Of a stretch of DNA of 64,000 nucleotides, positions 27,066 to 36,211 are shown in pieces (position 1 is the stretch's first letter; each line of letters opens with the position of its first letter). Below the pieces are notes generated by a model that made no database searches, was not told where the DNA came from, and saw only the letters and a list, made by a program, of their open reading frames with translations. The position numbers and the translations under genes were made by a program. This DNA is from Candidatus Freyarchaeum deiterrae (lineage in GTDB: Archaea; Asgardarchaeota; Jordiarchaeia; Jordiarchaeales; Jordiarchaeaceae). The DNA is taken from assembly GCA_037305845.1 (NCBI GenBank), contig CP147778.1, positions 1,856,001 through 1,920,000 on the forward strand. Reading direction: 5' to 3'.

Positions 27066-27737
27066 GTGATTTGGTTGAGTGGAATTGTTAAAAAAAGGGC
27101 CGCTGCTTACAAGGTTCATATTTCCGACTTGGTTAGTGGCAAATGGGTGGAGAAACCTGGCGGCCGATTTGTTTTGACCAATTCTGGATTAGAGGCCCAG
27201 AGGGCTCGAGTTCTGGGAACAGTGGTTGATAAATTTATCAGTTCCCAGTCGGAATTTGGTAGTATTACTGTTGATGACGGTACTAAAACAATTAGAGCTA
27301 AAACTTGGAAAACTCAGAATCCCCTTCTGAATAAAGTCCAGATTGGTGACATTGTAGATCTTATCGGTAAGGTTAGAGAGTATCAGGGTGAGATTTATTT
27401 AGTTCCCGAACTTATCATAAATGTGGACGATCCCAATTGGGAACTTCTAAGAGAATTAGAATTAATTTCCTTTAACCCTAAAGATAAGACTAGTCCCATA
27501 AAGGAAGAAGTAGGGGTATCGGAAGAAGACAAACCCCCCGCTGAAGAAGACCTCGTTGATAAGATTGGTAATGTTTTGGAAATCATAGAAGAAATGGATG
27601 AAGGCGAAGGAGTAGATTTCGAAACAATCAAGAAAAAAACCGGGTTATCACAAAAAGAATTAGAGTCTTGTCTAGTAGAACTGTTGTCTGATGGAACAAT
27701 CTACGAGCCGAGACCTCAGAATTATAGGAAACTCTGA
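27066..27737 (+). CDS. RPA32/RPA2-like ssDNA-binding subunit (OB fold + C-terminal winged helix)
   Basis: RARVLGTVV, DDGT, GKVREYQGE; C-terminal L..DGTIYEP. Confidence 0.82.
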   Translation: MIWLSGIVKKRAAAYKVHISDLVSGKWVEKPGGRFVLTNSGLEAQRARVLGTVVDKFISSQSEFGSITVDDGTKTIRAKTWKTQNPLLNKVQIGDIVDLIGKVREYQGEIYLVPELIINVDDPNWELLRELELISFNPKDKTSPIKEEVGVSEEDKPPAEEDLVDKIGNVLEIIEEMDEGEGVDFETIKKKTGLSQKELESCLVELLSDGTIYEPRPQNYRKL

Positions 27738-27758
27738 AACATTTATGGAGGTTAAACA

Positions 27759-28169
27759 ATGGATGACTACCAACGTCTATTAGATAGAGCACGGGAGCAG
27801 GTGCCCCCTGAAGTATTTGAAAGTAAACGGTTTGATGTTCCTAAGGCGTCTATCTTCGTTGAAGGTAGCAGGACAATTATTAAAAATTACAAAGATATAG
27901 CCCAAGTTATGAATAGAGACCCTCAGCATCTGTTGAAGTTTCTCATGCGTGAATTGGCAACCTCAGGTGTTGTAGATGGACAGAGAGCGGTTTTCCAAGG
28001 AAAATTCTCAAGTAAATCCCTCGACGATTTAATATCAAGATACACCAAGACTTACGTTGTCTGTTCTGAGTGTGGTAAACCTGACACTCATATTGAGAAA
28101 CAAGATAGATTCCAATATTTGGTGTGTGAAGCTTGCGGAGCGAGAGCCTCAATAAAAATTATACAGTAA
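27759..28169 (+). CDS. eif2b: Translation initiation factor 2 beta subunit
   Basis: YQRLLDRA, NRDPQHLLKFL.RELAT, CSECGKPDT, CEACGA. Confidence 0.95.
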   Translation: MDDYQRLLDRAREQVPPEVFESKRFDVPKASIFVEGSRTIIKNYKDIAQVMNRDPQHLLKFLMRELATSGVVDGQRAVFQGKFSSKSLDDLISRYTKTYVVCSECGKPDTHIEKQDRFQYLVCEACGARASIKIIQ

Positions 28170-28221
28170 AAAGCTACATTGTATCCAATTACTATAACAT
28201 GAAACACGGAGAATATAAAAA

Positions 28222-28518
28222 ATGAGAGTATACCTTCGTGTGCGAAGAGTCAATAACGAGGTTTTGGTCGCTGTTTGTGACGAGGACATAGCAGGAAAAA
28301 CCTTCAGAGAAGGCAAGCTCAAAATAGAGGTGAATAAATCCTTTTACTGCGGCGAACTTGTCTCAATAGAAGAAGGCGTTGAGGCGATTAAACAAGGAAC
28401 TATAGTAAACATAGTCGGCAACAACATAGTTTCTGAAGCTATAAGCGCCGGATTAATTCACCCTCTAGGAATCATAAAAATCGAGGGAGTAGCTCACGCA
28501 CAAAAAGTAATAATGTAG
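28222..28518 (+). CDS. DUF424 family protein
   Basis: LVAVCDED..GK.F.EG, FYCGE, NIVG, GVAHAQ. Confidence 0.85.
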   Translation: MRVYLRVRRVNNEVLVAVCDEDIAGKTFREGKLKIEVNKSFYCGELVSIEEGVEAIKQGTIVNIVGNNIVSEAISAGLIHPLGIIKIEGVAHAQKVIM

Positions 28519-28545
28519 ATTCAGATTTGACGGAGCCATAATTTA

Positions 28546-29607
28546 ATGTCGAAAAGATTCTGCGCACTTTGTGGAAAAACAGACGTCCCCCTAATTGAAA
28601 ATCTCTGCCAAGCGTGCTATTTTAAGAAAAACCCCCCTTTCAGCATTAAACATGAACCAGAATTAAGGATTTGTCCTCACTGCTTCAGCTATAAACTCTC
28701 TAAAAAATGGGTACAAACACAAAGCTCAAACCAAACCGAATTCTTAGAACAAGCAATCGCACAGGTCTTACCACTATTCATAAAACACTCTCCAGAGTTT
28801 GATATTACCGTACAACCTCAAATAGATGAAGAAATAAAATTAACAAATAAAATCGAAATCCCCGTCTTAATATCCGCTAAAAAGGATGATATAGTTATTA
28901 CCGAAACATTGCCGGTCACAATTATCATCGAATCTGCTCCATGCGAGGTATGCACAAAAAAAATGAGTGGCGCTTATGAGGCTATACTCCAATTCAGAAG
29001 CTTGAAAGGTCGAATAAGCGAGGAGGAGAAACTACAAGTCTACGATATAATAGACAAAACTCTTTGCTTAGAAAGCTATAAAGGCGCCTACATTTCCGAA
29101 ATTAAAGAGAAAAAACAAGGCTTCGACGCCTATGTTAGCTCAATAAGATTAGCCAAGAGCATAGCAACATCCGCTAAAGATCTTATGGGCGCAAACCTAC
29201 AGGAATCGTTCAAAATTTCGGGAATGAAAGATGGAAAAAAACTAGGAAAATTCTCCCTCTCCGTGAGACTCCCCTCCTTTAGCATAGGCGAAATACTACA
29301 AACCCCTGATAAAACCATCATATTTGAAAAAATCGAAAAAGGAAACCCTATCGGAAAGAATCCAGAAACTGGAGAGCGATCAGTCATCCAATACAAAGAT
29401 TTATGGGAGTCAGAAATACAAAGCTGGGAACCAGAAACAAGAGAATACCAAATAATCTCAAAAACAGGAAACTTCCTCCAACTAATGGATCTAAAAACTT
29501 ACGAAATCACAGAAATAAAAAAAGAAGCCAACTACACCAACCTGAGCGAAGGAGAAACAGTAAAAGCAATAAAGATAGACGAAAAAATAATAATTATCAC
29601 ACCCTAA
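28546..29607 (+). CDS. nmd3: NMD3 family ribosome biogenesis protein
   Basis: FCALCG, LCQAC, ICPHC, CEVC...YEAILQFR, C-terminal OB fold QLMDLKTYE. Confidence 0.9.
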   Translation: MSKRFCALCGKTDVPLIENLCQACYFKKNPPFSIKHEPELRICPHCFSYKLSKKWVQTQSSNQTEFLEQAIAQVLPLFIKHSPEFDITVQPQIDEEIKLTNKIEIPVLISAKKDDIVITETLPVTIIIESAPCEVCTKKMSGAYEAILQFRSLKGRISEEEKLQVYDIIDKTLCLESYKGAYISEIKEKKQGFDAYVSSIRLAKSIATSAKDLMGANLQESFKISGMKDGKKLGKFSLSVRLPSFSIGEILQTPDKTIIFEKIEKGNPIGKNPETGERSVIQYKDLWESEIQSWEPETREYQIISKTGNFLQLMDLKTYEITEIKKEANYTNLSEGETVKAIKIDEKIIIITP

Positions 29608-29876
29608 CCTAAAAATTAATAATGCACTTCTCTCACCTTGGAACAATGACCCATGTAACTCAAAACAAACTCACTATTTTTGATAAACGCTAACATCATC
29701 AAAGTCTCCGTATTTTACATTCATCCAATAAACAGGAATGTAATAGTGTATCACATACCATTCTCTGCCCCAACCATACAGGACAATGTCGCACACGATA
29801 CCCTATCAAAAATAGAAAGATTTAGGAAATTTTAAAAGAGCGTATACATTTATTCATTAAGAGAACCAAAAGAAGG

Positions 29877-30197
29877 TTGAAAATTGTGTCACCCAAAAGA
29901 ACAACCACAGATAACGAAGAAGAATACAAAAAGGTACGTCTCCCACGACAGGGAGAACTTCTCGGAGTAGTATTAAAAATGCTAGGCTACGACCACCTTC
30001 ACGTGAAGTCTACCGATGGACAAACCAGAATGTGCAGAATAAGAGGAAAAATGAAGAAAAGAGTATGGTTGAGAGAAGGTGACATAGTAATTCTCGCACC
30101 CTGGGACTTCCAAGACGCAAAAGCCGACATAATCTGGAGATACTCCCGGGGACAAGCCAAATGGCTCGAAGAAAACGGTTACCTACAAGGAATATGA
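29877..30197 (+). CDS. eif1a: Translation initiation factor 1A
   Basis: CRIRGKMKKRVWLREGD, PWDFQ, DIIWRY. Confidence 0.96.
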   Translation: MKIVSPKRTTTDNEEEYKKVRLPRQGELLGVVLKMLGYDHLHVKSTDGQTRMCRIRGKMKKRVWLREGDIVILAPWDFQDAKADIIWRYSRGQAKWLEENGYLQGI

Positions 30198-30210
30198 AGT
30201 CCTCACCGGA

Positions 30211-30795
30211 TCATGTTCCTGTTCCCGCACCGGTTCCACTCGCAGTCTTCCATGTAGCCAGTCTTCTTTTTAAAGCTCGTTTTCTCTTTTGAAGAACAGT
30301 GTAAACTGTCGAGTGGGGGGCACCTTCGATTAACATCATTACTGCCTCCTTAGCTATTCTGCTCTGATACACATCACCTATTATGGTTACAGTGTGTCCA
30401 TAAACTGACAGTATAGCCCCACTAGCTTCTTCAATAATCCTTCTGCTCTTCCCCCCAGCACCTATAATGCGACCCTTAATCCTATCCAACATGTTCTTAG
30501 ACTTGGCAAAAAGTGTAAGGTCAACTATCTCCAGCAACTCATCATCACCCAAGAGCCTAAACGCTCTACTTGGACTAAAACCTCTACCAATAGCCCGCAC
30601 AATATCCCTAGCCTTCCAAATAGCCACAGGATCTTCCATCTCCGCCGTTGGAACGATAATAACGTTGCCCTCTTCACCATCAATCTCAAGCCTAGTTTTA
30701 GTATCCCTCTCAATAACATTCTTAACCCTTCCCTCAGGGCCAATAATAACCGCAACACGTTCTTTTGGAACTTTTACAAATTCTCTTGTCTCCAT
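30211..30795 (-). CDS. KH-domain rRNA processing protein (Dim2/Pno1/Krr1 family)
   Basis: RVAVIIG, AIGRGFSP, RIKGRIIG, GAPHSTVY. Confidence 0.92.
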   Translation of the reverse strand: METREFVKVPKERVAVIIGPEGRVKNVIERDTKTRLEIDGEEGNVIIVPTAEMEDPVAIWKARDIVRAIGRGFSPSRAFRLLGDDELLEIVDLTLFAKSKNMLDRIKGRIIGAGGKSRRIIEEASGAILSVYGHTVTIIGDVYQSRIAKEAVMMLIEGAPHSTVYTVLQKRKRALKRRLATWKTASGTGAGTGT

Positions 30796-31592
30796 TTCAA
30801 CTCCTCACCTGTAACCTCTTTATAAGCCTCCTCCAAAGAGGGGACACCTACTCCTAAACCTGAAAAATACCTCAAAATATTCTTCAAATCACGTGCCAAA
30901 AAATCTAACGCAAGAGGATGACTCAGAAGAACCGCCTGAGAAACATCAATAATCACCGGCCCATTCTTCCAATACAAAATATTATACTCACTGAGATCCC
31001 CATGAACTAACTTCGCCTTCTTGTAAAGTGTAATAACATAATCAAAAACAGTCCCAAAAACGGATTCAGGTTCCTCAATAACTATATCCTTCAGCCTAGG
31101 AGCAGAAACACCGTTCTCACCAATAAACTCCATAACAAGAACATTACTCCGACAAACAACCGGCTTAGGAACCCTAACACCCACCTCATCCGCAAGCTTA
31201 AGATTCTTAAACTCCTTCTCCGCCCATGCATACATTATAGAACTAGTATCCTTCTTAACTTTAGTGAACCGCGGATCCCCCTCAATATAACCCCAAATAT
31301 GTTTAAAATCCAAGGTAGAAGTCCGATAAACCTTAACGGCCAAATCTCTTTCCTTACCATCCTCCTCAAGAGTCGCCCAATAAACATTCGACTCCTTCCC
31401 CGAAGCAACAACCCCCTTCATACCGCTCAAGTAACCACGACTAATCAAACCATACAAAATAATCGCAGTCCTCTTATCAACAACCGCCTGCACAGTATCC
31501 AAATCCTCAGACCTCTTCCTCCTAACCCTACTCCTATCAATCTTACGATCAAACCTATCCTCACGCTTATCCAAAACTATCACCATCATCAA
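30774..31592 (-). CDS. rio1: RIO1 serine/threonine kinase
   Basis: SGKESNVY, AVKVYR, WAEKEFKNL, LVHGDLSEYNIL, IIDVSQAV. Confidence 0.95.
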   Translation of the reverse strand: MMMVIVLDKREDRFDRKIDRSRVRRKRSEDLDTVQAVVDKRTAIILYGLISRGYLSGMKGVVASGKESNVYWATLEEDGKERDLAVKVYRTSTLDFKHIWGYIEGDPRFTKVKKDTSSIMYAWAEKEFKNLKLADEVGVRVPKPVVCRSNVLVMEFIGENGVSAPRLKDIVIEEPESVFGTVFDYVITLYKKAKLVHGDLSEYNILYWKNGPVIIDVSQAVLLSHPLALDFLARDLKNILRYFSGLGVGVPSLEEAYKEVTGEELKWRQENL

Positions 31593-31664: not shown

Positions 31665-31836
31665 TGGTGCGGGGAACGGGACTTTCAGCGAAGCAGAAGA
31701 ATCTGCCTCACATTCGAACCCGTGAAGGCCTACGCAGCTCCGCCAAACACCGACGAAACACTACGCCACCAGGTCCTAAGCCTGGCTCCTATAGCCAACC
31801 CTTAAGGGGGAGTTTGACCGGCTCGGATATCCCCGC
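31665..31836 (-). tRNA. tRNA-Leu(UAG) with three introns (D-loop 31791-31813, variable arm 31730-31760, T-loop 59/60 31682-31712); CCA encoded
   Basis: Acceptor GCGGGGA/TCCCCGC, anticodon arm CCAGG-CTTAGGA-CCTGG, T arm ACGGG-TTCGAAT-CCCGT; mature length 87 nt. Confidence 0.9.
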
Positions 31837-32020
31837 AACAATTCTAAATCACTAAACTACCACAACAACAAATTCCTAATATACAAAATGGATACGCATA
31901 ATAATTTTTATACATTTCCTTTTGAACTTTACTATCCCCAAAAATTGGAATAAAGAAGATTAACAGAGAAAGAGTACCTAAAAAGTTTTTGAAACCCTTT
32001 ATGGATTTCTTTTCTACCAC

Positions 32021-32034
32021 AGAAACTTATAAAA
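32021..32034 (+). promoter_or_regulatory. BRE/TATA promoter of tRNA-Leu(GAG)
   Basis: AGAAAC-TTATAAAA about 40 nt upstream of tRNA position 1. Confidence 0.5.
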
Positions 32035-32073
32035 AGTGGTTAGCATAATCCTATTTTTGGCAATAAATTTGGC

Positions 32074-32267
32074 GCAGAGATATCCCAGTCTGGTCAATGT
32101 ATACGACTAAAGGAGTAGGACTGAGGTTACTCGGGTTCGAACCACTCGAGAATCAGAGCTCCTATGGCGCAGAAACTCTCTAGCCTTCTAGGGGTTTACG
32201 TAGGCCTTCGGGAGTTCAATCAGTAGCAGAGTTCCTGTTGCTGGAATATATCTCCCTCTCTGCACCA
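32074..32267 (+). tRNA. tRNA-Leu(GAG) with four introns (32098-32110, 32127-32158, 32173-32203, 32220-32249); CCA encoded
   Basis: Acceptor GCAGAGA/TCTCTGC, anticodon arm TAGGA-CTGAGG|C-TCCTA, T arm GGGAG-TTCAA|AT-CTCCC; mature length 88 nt. Confidence 0.9.
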
Positions 32268-32372: not shown

Positions 32373-32648
32373 ATGTTATTTTTAGTGATAAGCAGCCCAT
32401 ATTCCTCAAAACCTGAAGATGTCAAAAACGCAAGATTGGAATTTAGGTCTTGGATTAAAGATTTGAAGTCAAAGAGCAAAGTGACCTGCTTCTATCCCAA
32501 AGTAGGAAGGGGCTCCGTTGTAATTTTCGATGTCTCCTCAAATGATGAACTTCATAAACTGCTGACCCACTGGCTAAACATTGTACCCGTAAGTTTCGAC
32601 ATTTACCCTTTGGCAACCCCATCGGAGGCGGAGGAGCTTTTAAAATAG
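32373..32648 (+). CDS. Small DUF3303/muconolactone-isomerase-like protein between the two tRNA-Leu(GAG) copies
   Basis: AGGAGGT SD then MLFLVIS...GRGSVVIFDVSSNDELHKLL..W...FDIYPL. Confidence 0.6.
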   Translation: MLFLVISSPYSSKPEDVKNARLEFRSWIKDLKSKSKVTCFYPKVGRGSVVIFDVSSNDELHKLLTHWLNIVPVSFDIYPLATPSEAEELLK

Positions 32649-32903
32649 GAATAGATAACATGGGATTGCTCGCACTATCGCCGCGCGTACGCGCGCAGAA
32701 CCATGAGCCAACATTTGACACTCACATCGTTCTTTTGTTCTGTATTTTGACAAAGTGCCGATACTTTCTTTTTGAGTTAAAAAAAAGCGAGAACGCACAG
32801 TATTAAGACTTATAGGTATGTCCCGACTTGCACCGTAAGATGATCCAGAAAGCTCAAGTCCCTAAGACGCACCAGAGCCCTGAGCTTTTACTCAGAATTT
32901 GAT

Positions 32904-33092
32904 TATCCTAGCCTGGTCAAAGTTTAACGACTAAAGGAGCAGGACTGAGGTTACTCAGGTTCGAACAACTCGAGAATCAGAGCTCCTGTGGCGCAGAAAC
33001 TCTCTAGTCCTTTTAGGGGTTTACGTAGGCCTTCACGAGTTCAATCAGTAACAGAATCCCTGTTGCTGGAATACATCTCGTCCTCCGCACCA
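32904..33092 (+). pseudogene. Second tRNA-Leu(GAG) copy with the same four introns, lacking the 5' acceptor strand
   Basis: Homologous to 32081-32267 from position 8 on; its 3' strand CCTCCGC-ACCA has no partner in the preceding ATTTGAT. Confidence 0.75.
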
Positions 33093-33196: not shown

Positions 33197-36100
33197 TTAC
33201 TGTCTTCGTAATAATGTTTCATGTATTCTGGTCAGGGTGTCTGGGTAGAAGACTCTCATGAGAATTAGGACTACTACCAGTAACCCGAATATAATAGTAA
33301 CTATTCTGCTCAGGGTGTCCATGTCAAATTGACCGCTAGCTGCATTTGCTGTGAGCAGTGACAAGATTGGAATGGGTGACGGTGGCGTTGGGGTAACTAC
33401 TTGGACTGTGAAACTTTCATTAAAGCTTCTACCAGCGTTGTCGGTCACATTTAGGGTGATATTTAGATTGCCGAGAGAACTCGGAGTTATCGGAAGCTCC
33501 GCAATCCCCGTATTATTGTTGTAGAATACTGTTGCATCATGGGATTCGCCATTTAAAAACACTGTTAGATTGGTTAAGTTAACCTGTGGAGTACTTGAAG
33601 CGTTGAAAGGTAGATATCTTACCCATATCTGCAAATTAAACGGTATTCCTAGAGTTAATGTTTCGTTAAGTGTAACATCTGGTTCTATTAGTCCCGCTTC
33701 TAATTGGTACACGTTGAATATGTAATAGTTCTGTGCTAGTGCCTGGTTGCCTATCCCCCTTATCATAATGTTATTACTTGAGTTCGTTGTAACTGATGCA
33801 ATGTATTCCCCAATATCTTGGGGGGTGAAATTTACGTTCCAGTTCTGGAAATCGGTTGTGTTTCCTGAATAATTAAACATCGTGCCGTTGGGGTTGATTA
33901 TGGTTACGGTCAAATTACTTGGGTTATCCAGTACATTTGTAATATTTAACGTGACTGATGTGCCCTTATAGGGCACGATGGTTGATGTAACATTCACTTG
34001 GGAGTAGAAGGTTATTGTAGTGTTCATTGTTTCTCCATTAGAAAGTTCTTGTCCTATGCTTGTAGAGTTGAAGGCGTTTTTGAGTATTGTTATCGTCTTG
34101 GTTATCGAATTTGTAAATGCCTCAGTCCAATTATCTGAAAGAAGGGTGCTGTTGAGAAATATTGTGTTAGCAGCGCTTTGGTTCGCTGCTGGATTATAGC
34201 TGACATACTCAGATTCCTGCGATAAGGAAATAGTCGCATTACTATGCGTATATATACTGGTGAATGTAGAGCCCGAGAATGTGGATGTGTTTGTATAAAC
34301 CATTTGAGCATTAATGGATGCGTTTAAACTGGTGCTGTTCCAATCCTGACTGGTTTGGTTCCAAGCCTTAAAAATTAGCGTAGCTACACCTGTGCTACTG
34401 TTGTATCCCACTTGACTGCTGGTGAAGATTTGACTCCAGTAACCTTGAGTACTGTTAACCATAGAGATATCGTTAATATAAAATAATGTATGGTTACTCA
34501 AGCCGTCACTGTAGTTATAGTAAAATAAATTGTAAGTTAGACTGTATTGGATATCCTTACTACTCGCCAGATTAAAGGTAACGATGCTTCCTGAGGCGTT
34601 TTGTATCGGGGTCCAAACAGTATCATTCCATACCCGATTACCGCCAACGAGTTTATTATTAACGGAGATATTGATACCACTCGTATCTGTCGAATTATAA
34701 GATGTAATCTGCATACACTGCCAGTATCTGTGACCGAACGGGTCTCGGACATCCTTCCAGTTCCAATTGCTAGAATTATCAGGGGTGGTCCATATTCCAT
34801 AGCCCTCTGGCGGAGGAATCTCAAATGCACTAGTATGGCTCGCCCAATCATAAAACTGACCGCTACTCGGATCTCCCGTCCAGTTTTTTGTATGAATTAC
34901 TAGGAAGTAATTTCCTTGTGAGAAATGACCTGTAAAGTTAAGAGTAAGCAAATTATAAGTTGAATTTACGTTCTGGTAAGGCACTTCCAAAGCGACACCA
35001 GTAACATTGCTGCTTAAATTATAAGCCCCAATTGATGAATCGAATGTAGCATTCCAAATCTCGGCAGTGAGGTTTTGCGTTAAACCTGTGGTGCGTAGTA
35101 TCAGTATCTGAATTGTGAGATTGTTCGAGTCATCCGGCAATGTGAACCTTTGAGCTTGGCTCACATTTCCAACGGTGTGTGCGAAGCCGTCTGAATTAGT
35201 TACGTTCTCAATAACGTGTAACTGTGAAACCGGAGTTATACTAGTAAAGTTGATGACGGCAAGATACATCCGATCCCCGTTAGGAATGATGACGTTGAAG
35301 CTACCTGTACCCCCTGTAATATTTCCAGTGGTGCTGCCTGCAATATTATAGTTAATATTACCTGTGTTATTAAAGACATCCACTGAGAGCTGATTCAAAG
35401 TCCAATTCGCTGGGAGCTGCAATGTCAATGTATACTGAAGCTTTGTTAAATTCATTATCATCCAGCAATTGAATGCAACTGAACTTTGAGACCAAAGATT
35501 GGTATCATTTATTTGTTCTATATCTGTGAAATTTTTCAGGTTGAGTGCTAATCCTCCGCTATTAGGAGTACATCCCCAAGTATAATATGTAGTATTGTCG
35601 CTTGAAGTACTAGTATTTAATCTTACCAATATGAAATAAGTCTGGCTTGGGTTCAGCTTAATGGTAGTTTCATTAAGTAGAGTAACCCAATTTCCACTGG
35701 CATTAAAACTGCTATTTGAGTACGTTTGACTTAGCAGAATAGCATCTGATGCGTTACTTGGCACCCACATCGAACCAATCAGGGTTCCATTCCTCAGCTC
35801 TACCCTAAAATCTGGAGGAGACGTATTATTATAGCCTATCCATAGTTGAACACCATTAAAGTATGTTGTAACATTTGAGGTGCTAAATGGCATGGCTACA
35901 GAACTGTTCAAGTTATCGTTCCAAGATATATTGAGATTATTTTCTGGCGGCCCGGTGAGATTACCTTCTATAGTATCCGAGGCCGTTTTATTTGTGATTT
36001 GAAACCATGTTACATTGTAATATGCTCCATTTATTTGGATTGTGGGGTCATTTGTAGTGCCTTTCAGTTGAGGGGGATTCATTTTTTGGCCTGCGGTTAG

Positions 36101-36211
36101 TGGAGATGCTACTGGCGTGTTGGTGGTTAATATGAATAGCATAGCGCATAGAAACAATACGCAAAGTACAAGCGCAATAGCCGCCTTTTTTCTGCTCTTC
36201 ATTTCAACCAC
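33197..36211 (-). CDS. Large secreted, membrane-anchored cell-surface glycoprotein (S-layer-like)
   Basis: N-terminal KSRKK + hydrophobic signal, very many N-x-S/T sequons, Pro-rich linker, C-terminal TM helix. Confidence 0.8.
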   Translation of the reverse strand: MVEMKSRKKAAIALVLCVLFLCAMLFILTTNTPVASPLTAGQKMNPPQLKGTTNDPTIQINGAYYNVTWFQITNKTASDTIEGNLTGPPENNLNISWNDNLNSSVAMPFSTSNVTTYFNGVQLWIGYNNTSPPDFRVELRNGTLIGSMWVPSNASDAILLSQTYSNSSFNASGNWVTLLNETTIKLNPSQTYFILVRLNTSTSSDNTTYYTWGCTPNSGGLALNLKNFTDIEQINDTNLWSQSSVAFNCWMIMNLTKLQYTLTLQLPANWTLNQLSVDVFNNTGNINYNIAGSTTGNITGGTGSFNVIIPNGDRMYLAVINFTSITPVSQLHVIENVTNSDGFAHTVGNVSQAQRFTLPDDSNNLTIQILILRTTGLTQNLTAEIWNATFDSSIGAYNLSSNVTGVALEVPYQNVNSTYNLLTLNFTGHFSQGNYFLVIHTKNWTGDPSSGQFYDWASHTSAFEIPPPEGYGIWTTPDNSSNWNWKDVRDPFGHRYWQCMQITSYNSTDTSGINISVNNKLVGGNRVWNDTVWTPIQNASGSIVTFNLASSKDIQYSLTYNLFYYNYSDGLSNHTLFYINDISMVNSTQGYWSQIFTSSQVGYNSSTGVATLIFKAWNQTSQDWNSTSLNASINAQMVYTNTSTFSGSTFTSIYTHSNATISLSQESEYVSYNPAANQSAANTIFLNSTLLSDNWTEAFTNSITKTITILKNAFNSTSIGQELSNGETMNTTITFYSQVNVTSTIVPYKGTSVTLNITNVLDNPSNLTVTIINPNGTMFNYSGNTTDFQNWNVNFTPQDIGEYIASVTTNSSNNIMIRGIGNQALAQNYYIFNVYQLEAGLIEPDVTLNETLTLGIPFNLQIWVRYLPFNASSTPQVNLTNLTVFLNGESHDATVFYNNNTGIAELPITPSSLGNLNITLNVTDNAGRSFNESFTVQVVTPTPPSPIPILSLLTANAASGQFDMDTLSRIVTIIFGLLVVVLILMRVFYPDTLTRIHETLLRRQ

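Follow-up and report, generated by a model that had tools for sequence, protein, structure and literature searches.

Does a single tRNA gene of the Asgard archaeon Candidatus Freyarchaeum deiterrae carry four introns, and if it does, is it exceptional in doing so? The locus lies in a window of 64,000 nucleotides of the genome (positions 1,856,001 to 1,920,000 of contig CP147778.1), where a preliminary description had seen a tRNA-Leu(GAG) gene with four introns and had raised the possibility of a record. The four-intron gene is real, was already known as such, and is no record even within its own genome. What the locus adds is a truncated second copy of the same gene next to a foreign-looking coding sequence.

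Structure of the tRNA-Leu(GAG) gene

The gene occupies positions 32074-32267 of the forward strand (194 nt), and four inserts divide it into five exons (Table 1). The inserts sum to 106 nt and their excision leaves an 88-nt tRNA with encoded CCA, so that the proportion of intron to tRNA given in the preliminary description was borne out by computation. The spliced sequence is drawn by ARAGORN as a class II tRNA-Leu(gag) with a canonical cloverleaf, in which the acceptor stem has 7 pairs, the variable stem has three pairs and closes a GCAG loop, and A73 is the discriminator. When all 16 combinations of kept and removed inserts were compared, an intron-free tRNA-Leu(GAG) was obtained from the fully spliced form alone.

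Each of the four inserts is bounded by a bulge-helix-bulge (BHB) motif whose bulges measure 3 nt, whose cut register is the standard one and whose central helix is flanked by one pair or more. The central helix has four of four pairs in intron 1 (GGTC/GACT), intron 2 (CTGA/TCAG) and intron 4 (GTTC/GAAT), and three of four in intron 3 (GCGC/ACGT); the one mismatch, C-A, is the one that had been noted when the variable-arm motif was called relaxed. The adjacent exon helix (h) comprises 3, 5, 1 and 4 pairs for introns 1 to 4, respectively. The inner helix h' is present in all four introns, the 13 nt of intron 1 leaving room for only about one pair. Relaxed BHB motifs readily arise by chance, as stated in a recent preprint (bioRxiv 10.64898/2026.10.13.758758), and the motif alone is therefore no proof of intron 3.

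The parse was recovered by a blind search in which BHB inserts were removed and the products ranked by a strict cloverleaf score, with 183 anchor candidates from the whole genome as input. Exactly these four removals were returned, with a score of 73. The best-resolved tRNA genes score 70-75, and non-tRNA anchor candidates do not exceed 52. When the interior of the gene was shuffled 40 times no score exceeded 54, and in a further 40 shuffles that left the real last 60 nt in place none exceeded 65. Filtering the removals by ARAGORN alone gave many false parses, including wrong anticodons for Leu(GAG), and was replaced by this score. Alternative cuts were also worked through by hand, with the central helix of the D-loop insert formed with positions 14-17 and the variable-arm insert moved to other registers; they were rejected, as the G18-G19 pair was lost or the loop became atypical. 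The borders of introns 2, 3 and 4, i.e. three of the four, are identical to published tRNAscan-SE coordinates. The number, sizes and positions of the introns as described earlier were in this way reproduced exactly by direct removal and by blind search and, for three of the introns, by the published borders. In the raw, unspliced window the gene was detected neither by ARAGORN nor by Rfam, which is expected for a gene in five pieces and is no evidence against it.

The putative promoter element upstream of the gene recurs as the same BRE/TATA-like motif 5' of its orthologues, and the 5' flank is conserved in four congeners. Further upstream, positions 27066-31592 of the forward strand hold a conserved informational gene cluster, which we take to comprise an OB-fold RPA32-like protein, aIF2-beta, a DUF424-like protein, NMD3, aIF1A, a KH-domain Dim2/Pno1-like protein and a Rio1 kinase. 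On the other side, positions 33197-36211 of the reverse strand encode a 1004-aa protein rich in Asn, Thr and Ser, whose N-terminus is signal-like and whose C-terminus carries a membrane anchor; the gene is syntenic in congeners. A Pfam search with this protein gave zero matches; by composition it is S-layer-like. The divergent neighbour tRNA-Leu(TAG) has been tabulated with 3 introns (PMC11291895).

Table 1. Features of the tRNA-Leu(GAG) locus (window coordinates) and related genes elsewhere in the genome (genome coordinates, so marked). "Not in published table" refers to the tRNA table of PMC11291895.
Feature	Position	Strand	Description
tRNA-Leu(TAG)	31665..31836	-	three introns (21/22, variable arm, 58/59); divergent neighbour of Leu(GAG)
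BRE/TATA-like promoter element	32020..32035	+	~45 nt 5' of tRNA; from sequence, function predicted
Exon 1	32074..32097	+	positions 1-21: acceptor 5' strand, D-stem 5' strand, D-loop
Intron 1	32098..32110	+	13 nt, position 21/22; canonical BHB
Exon 2	32111..32126	+	positions 22-37, including anticodon GAG
Intron 2	32127..32158	+	32 nt, canonical position 37/38; strict BHB
Exon 3	32159..32172	+	position 38 through variable-arm GCAG loop
Intron 3	32173..32203	+	31 nt, directly 3' of variable-arm GCAG loop; relaxed BHB
Exon 4	32204..32219	+	variable-arm 3' strand through position 58
Intron 4	32220..32249	+	30 nt, position 58/59; strict BHB
Exon 5	32250..32267	+	positions 59-76, discriminator A73, encoded CCA
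DUF3303 gene	32373..32648	+	91 aa; Pfam PF11746 over cut-off; between the tRNA copies
Second Leu(GAG) copy, 5'-truncated	32904..33092	+	positions 8-76, all four introns, without acceptor 5' strand
Introns of truncated copy	32921-32934, 32951-32982, 32997-33028, 33045-33074	+	
Cys(GCA)	genome 1326639-1326821	+	four introns (15/16, 32/33, variable region, 58/59); published as 'Ser AGA'
Pro(TGG)	genome 1501690-1501840	-	three introns; not in published table
Glu(CTC)	genome 1545581-1545739	-	intron inside anticodon; published as 'Met CAT'
Ala(GGC)	genome 1547141-1547326	+	four introns; not in published table
Phe(GAA)	genome 1547648-1547842	+	four introns; not in published table
Leu(CAG)	genome 1631535-1631720	+	four introns; not in published table
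Probable Ser(GCT)	genome 1690130-1690305	-	not in published table
Initiator Met	genome 1729308-1729446	+	not in published table
Glu(TTC)	genome 1790046-1790195	-	not in published table
Pro(GGG)	genome 1798836-1799053	+	probably five introns: 15/16, 24/25, 25/26, 37/38, 58/59
Structural EndA subunit, 198 aa	genome near 1733100-1733700		assigned by sequence
Catalytic EndA subunit, 211 aa	genome 1920679-1921314	+	~0.7 kb past window end

Conservation and predicted processing of the introns

Four genomes of the same genus contain an orthologue of Leu(GAG) in the same neighbourhood, and all four genes yield an 88-nt Leu(GAG). Three of them (G001, G003 and G005) have four introns each and the fourth (G002) has three, the 37/38 intron being absent with a clean junction, which confirms the borders of intron 2. 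Across these congeners the exons are nearly fixed and the intron sequences vary. Intron 4 is near-identical in G002, while a different intron sits at the same site in G001, G003 and G005. The D-arm intron measures 13 nt here and lies at 21/22, whereas each of the four congeners has a different one of 28-29 nt at 22/23; both forms start with TGT, and the word CGACT is common to the host and three congeners. Either shrinkage with a one-base slide or independent gain may account for this difference. A pattern search across the order for Leu(GAG) genes lacking the 37/38 intron returned none, its one match being a different sequence; the pattern was too strict and missed the gene of G002. No orthologue devoid of the variable-arm intron was found in the four congeners or in this too strict search. 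Relative to the congeners, five base pairs of the intact gene are changed on both sides (3:70, 7:66, 27:43, 49:65 and 50:64), which we read as a sign of selection on the mature fold and as support for the function of this copy.

The host genome encodes two EndA paralogues and an RtcB (E 1e-171). The 211-aa paralogue is best aligned to the catalytic EndA subunit of Aeropyrum pernix (E 8e-43). Counted on the alignment, its Y149, H157 and K188 match the triad Y125, H133 and K164 of that enzyme, and in the specificity loop, which confers cleavage of D-loop and relaxed motifs (PMC3241643), its K66 and K68 correspond to K44 and R46. The 198-aa paralogue is without the catalytic His and fits a structural subunit. 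From its sequence likeness the host EndA would be expected to have a broad substrate range. The preprint describes the range of the enzyme as still to be measured and treats EndA as a permissive background, not as the cause of intron accumulation (bioRxiv 10.64898/2026.10.13.758758).

We propose that the gene is transcribed into one 194-nt precursor, in which each insert would fold with its flanking exon into a BHB motif. The cuts, each behind the second base of a bulge, would be made by an (αβ)2 EndA heterotetramer whose specificity loop is of the Crenarchaea type, and the exons would be joined by RtcB, four times in all, to give an ordinary 88-nt class II tRNA-Leu. Strict order would not be needed, the relaxed variable-arm intron probably leaving late, after the 37/38 intron. 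We infer transcription, cleavage, ligation and their order from the motifs, the product spliced on paper, the conservation and the presence of the enzyme genes. Four RNA runs gave no coverage of the stretch, which speaks neither for nor against expression. In folding calculations, forming any one of the four central helices in the full precursor costs 0.5-4.0 kcal/mol relative to the ensemble, so that no removal appears to be a strict precondition; the cost of the variable-arm helix drops from 4.0 to about 2 kcal/mol once intron 2 is gone, which suggests its late removal.

A search of the closed 3,576,204-bp genome turned up no second intact Leu(GAG) gene. CUU and CUC together make up about 3.3% of its codons, and splicing of this gene is therefore presumably required to read them. 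We estimate at about nine in ten the probability that this sole intact Leu(GAG) gene is spliced four times by EndA and RtcB into an 88-nt tRNA, and that its introns are tolerated as passengers that come and go singly, and are not parts of a designed switch. As to their origin, comparison with the other tRNA introns of the genome revealed no close relatives: best global scores were 8-19 versus best means of 4-12 for shuffled sequences, a single one of the four tests gave a p of 0.025, and identity stayed far below 80%. Transposition of the Thermoproteales type, or copying from other tRNA genes of the host, is thus not supported as a source, no near-identical introns having been found in this comparison. 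Little copying of introns between tRNA types is also reported for Asgard archaea generally in the preprint (bioRxiv 10.64898/2026.10.13.758758).

The truncated second copy and alternative readings

The truncated Leu(GAG) copy lies 830 bp downstream of the intact gene and is 89% identical to it over 189 nt; ARAGORN called no tRNA on it after splicing. This second copy is a new, previously unreported detail, absent from the published table (PMC11291895). The 5' flank of the intact copy is that of the congeners, and the 3' flank of the truncated copy resembles the congeners' 3' flank. The truncated copy also keeps the stem sequences of the congeners, from which the exons of the intact copy differ more. 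These sequences suggest that positions 8-76 of the intact copy came from a diverged source, not from local duplication.

The copies are separated by 636 bp that occur nowhere else in the genome. This segment contains the DUF3303 gene and a short antisense ORF only, and no integrase was found in it. Just 3' of the DUF3303 gene, a G+C-rich palindromic stretch (32679-32700) stands out from the A+T-rich segment. The DUF3303 protein is 80-89% identical to proteins of Anaerolineae and Thermodesulfobacteriota, and as a query it had no match in the four congeners, all of which have a single tRNA copy and no insert at this locus; the gene looks horizontally acquired.

Genomic islands integrated at tRNA genes are bounded by attL and attR direct repeats. 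By analogy, the two copies and the DUF3303 insert resemble the relic of a small island of this kind, with an intact tRNA gene on one side, a repeated tRNA 3' fragment on the other, and between them a foreign gene that is absent from congeners. The differences are that just 636 bp separate the copies, without an integrase, and that usual att sites are far shorter than the repeat observed here, which spans positions 8-76 and all introns. No integrated elements have been identified in this genome (PMC11529989); a small island is therefore neither described nor excluded by that study. Possibly, though we regard this as doubtful, mobile DNA carrying positions 8-76 of a diverged four-intron Leu(GAG), derived from a sister population, became inserted at the resident gene's 5' end, captured its promoter and left the old copy truncated, after which positions 3 and 7 were re-paired. 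With the same four introns in both copies, such a gene swap would document no gain of introns. If true, it would offer a route by which sets of tRNA introns pass between Asgard lineages, a question left open in the 2026 preprint. The truncated duplicate and the foreign gene thus constitute a small lead on the exchange of intron-rich tRNA genes.

Several other readings of the locus have to be weighed. It might be supposed that only three inserts are spliced and that the variable-arm insert is kept, as a 45-nt variable arm, or cut in another register. Its central mismatch, its weak exon helix, a local minimum-energy fold that in this strain is an internal loop and not a BHB, and the highest helix cost of the four in the full precursor point that way. 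However, inserts unrelated to it occupy the same site in the host's Leu(TAG) and Leu(CAG) and in all four congeners, and the central helix has all four pairs in G002 and Leu(TAG); the mismatch here is due to an exon reading GCAG where the congeners have GTAG. Leu(TAA) and Leu(CAA), moreover, have the same 14-nt arm with a GTAG loop, uninterrupted, and tRNAscan-SE calls identical borders, all of which makes retention very unlikely. Nor does it seem likely, although somewhat less remote, that the stacked introns act as a regulatory checkpoint, with tRNA-Leu output gated by how much EndA and RtcB can process, or by a forced order of splicing that is coupled to folding and modification. Four introns are indeed kept at the locus in four of five genomes; yet intron sequences and even positions turn over (21/22 versus 22/23, and loss at 37/38 in G002), the folding calculations predict no obligatory order, and nearly every tRNA gene of the host is interrupted, so that Leu(GAG) is not singled out.

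The remaining readings turn on the truncated copy. Its presence nearby, together with the greater divergence from congeners of the intact exons, could mean that the intact gene is a pseudogene or a chimera of two strains created in assembly, and never processed. Against this, no stem pair is lost through the differences, the gene retains its predicted promoter and its CCA, a further intact Leu(GAG) was looked for and not found, the segment between the copies is unique with a foreign-looking gene, and the overall topology of the genome is reported to have been validated with long reads (PMC11291895); we consider the idea highly improbable. Hardly more credible is that the truncated copy represents the 3' part of a split tRNA, trans-spliced to a 5' fragment encoded at another locus. 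It does keep the ancestral exons and all four BHB introns, and the last letters of its upstream sequence might make up a BHB strand together with positions 2-5 of the acceptor strand in the congeners. Among 1312 candidate starts, however, the best duplexes were ragged and the expected seven bases stood at the head of none; a BLAST search with the inter-copy segment gave nothing better than E 0.04, and an intact Leu(GAG) gene adjoins. A 5' partner with a clean complementary trailer was not found, and the split-tRNA reading was rejected.

Multi-intron tRNA genes in this genome and in other organisms

The suggestion of a record does not hold. The archaeal maximum of three introns named in the preliminary description corresponds to the view before 2024 (PMC4390854), and four-intron archaeal tRNAs have been listed since then in Supplementary Data 4 of PMC11291895. 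That table includes the present gene as tRNA 24, Leu GAG, at genome positions 1888074-1888267 (equal to 32074-32267 of the window); tRNAscan-SE counts 3 introns in it and R2DT 4. Ile2(CAT) and Arg(TCT) of the same genome are given four introns each. The tabulated tRNA coordinates fall on tRNA genes of the host genome. According to the paper, introns occur in 92-95% of tRNA genes in these genomes, with several in over half; its main-text passages on introns do not single out four-intron genes.

A census of the genome added four-intron genes for Leu(CAG), Ala(GGC), Phe(GAA) and Cys(GCA), which brings the host to seven four-intron tRNA genes and one probable five-intron gene. The census is incomplete, His(GTG) and Ser(CGA) not being recovered by the anchor search. 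In Phe(GAA), the intron near 31/32 has a poor motif at the chosen borders. Two published isotype calls, 'Ser AGA' and one 'Met CAT', look wrong (Table 1). Pro(GGG), tabulated with three introns (PMC11291895), probably carries five: the parse removes 141 nt of intron, gives a 77-nt product, leaves a one-nucleotide exon between introns 2 and 3, and is conserved in three congeners. The central helix of its third intron pairs better once the second is removed (four of four pairs in genomes G004 and G002, three of four in the host and G001), and this suggests ordered splicing, intron 2 before 3.

With four-intron tRNA genes, Leu(GAG) included, tabulated since 2024 and five introns reported elsewhere, the present gene has no value as a record. 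What interest remains attaches to the truncated duplicate and to the probable five-intron Pro(GGG) outside the window, with its one-base exon. Leu(GAG) is nevertheless a well-supported substrate, with four BHB motifs of graded strength in four arms and natural variants in congeners, useful for testing the range of the Asgard (αβ)2 EndA and the order of splicing in multi-intron tRNAs.

The closest known case is the gene itself, as tRNA #24 of SRVP_Freyarchaeota_curated_circular (Valentin-Alvarado et al. 2024, PMC11291895): genome and coordinates are the same, and three introns are tabulated out of a total of four, the D-loop intron (21/22) being counted as the fourth by R2DT without coordinates. 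The preprint (bioRxiv 10.64898/2026.10.13.758758, October 2026) gives the tRNA genes of Freyr-, Jord- and Atabeyarchaeaceae an average of 2.2 inserts per gene and a maximum of five in one gene, and in it we see no difference in kind from Leu(GAG). It states that D-arm inserts are the ones usually missed by tRNAscan-SE, and such missed inserts, an (αβ)2 EndA and little intron copying between tRNA types are common to those families and the present host. In the same preprint, strong evidence of mobile elements is reported near none of the tested intron gains, whereas here a tRNA-flanked foreign gene is found, if without an integrase. Thermoproteales (Pyrobaculum, PMC4390854) likewise have BHB introns at non-canonical positions and a broad-specificity (αβ)2 EndA with a specificity loop; they differ in having at most three introns per gene, and in that introns recur between tRNA types by transposition, unlike in this host. 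Finally, the three-intron tRNA-Ile(UAU) of Cyanidioschyzon merolae has BHB introns in the D-arm, at 37/38 and in the T-loop and serves as the model case of stepwise removal, which RT-PCR demonstrated there, in an obligatory order; in contrast to Leu(GAG), it is a eukaryotic nuclear gene without a variable-arm intron (PMC3728597).
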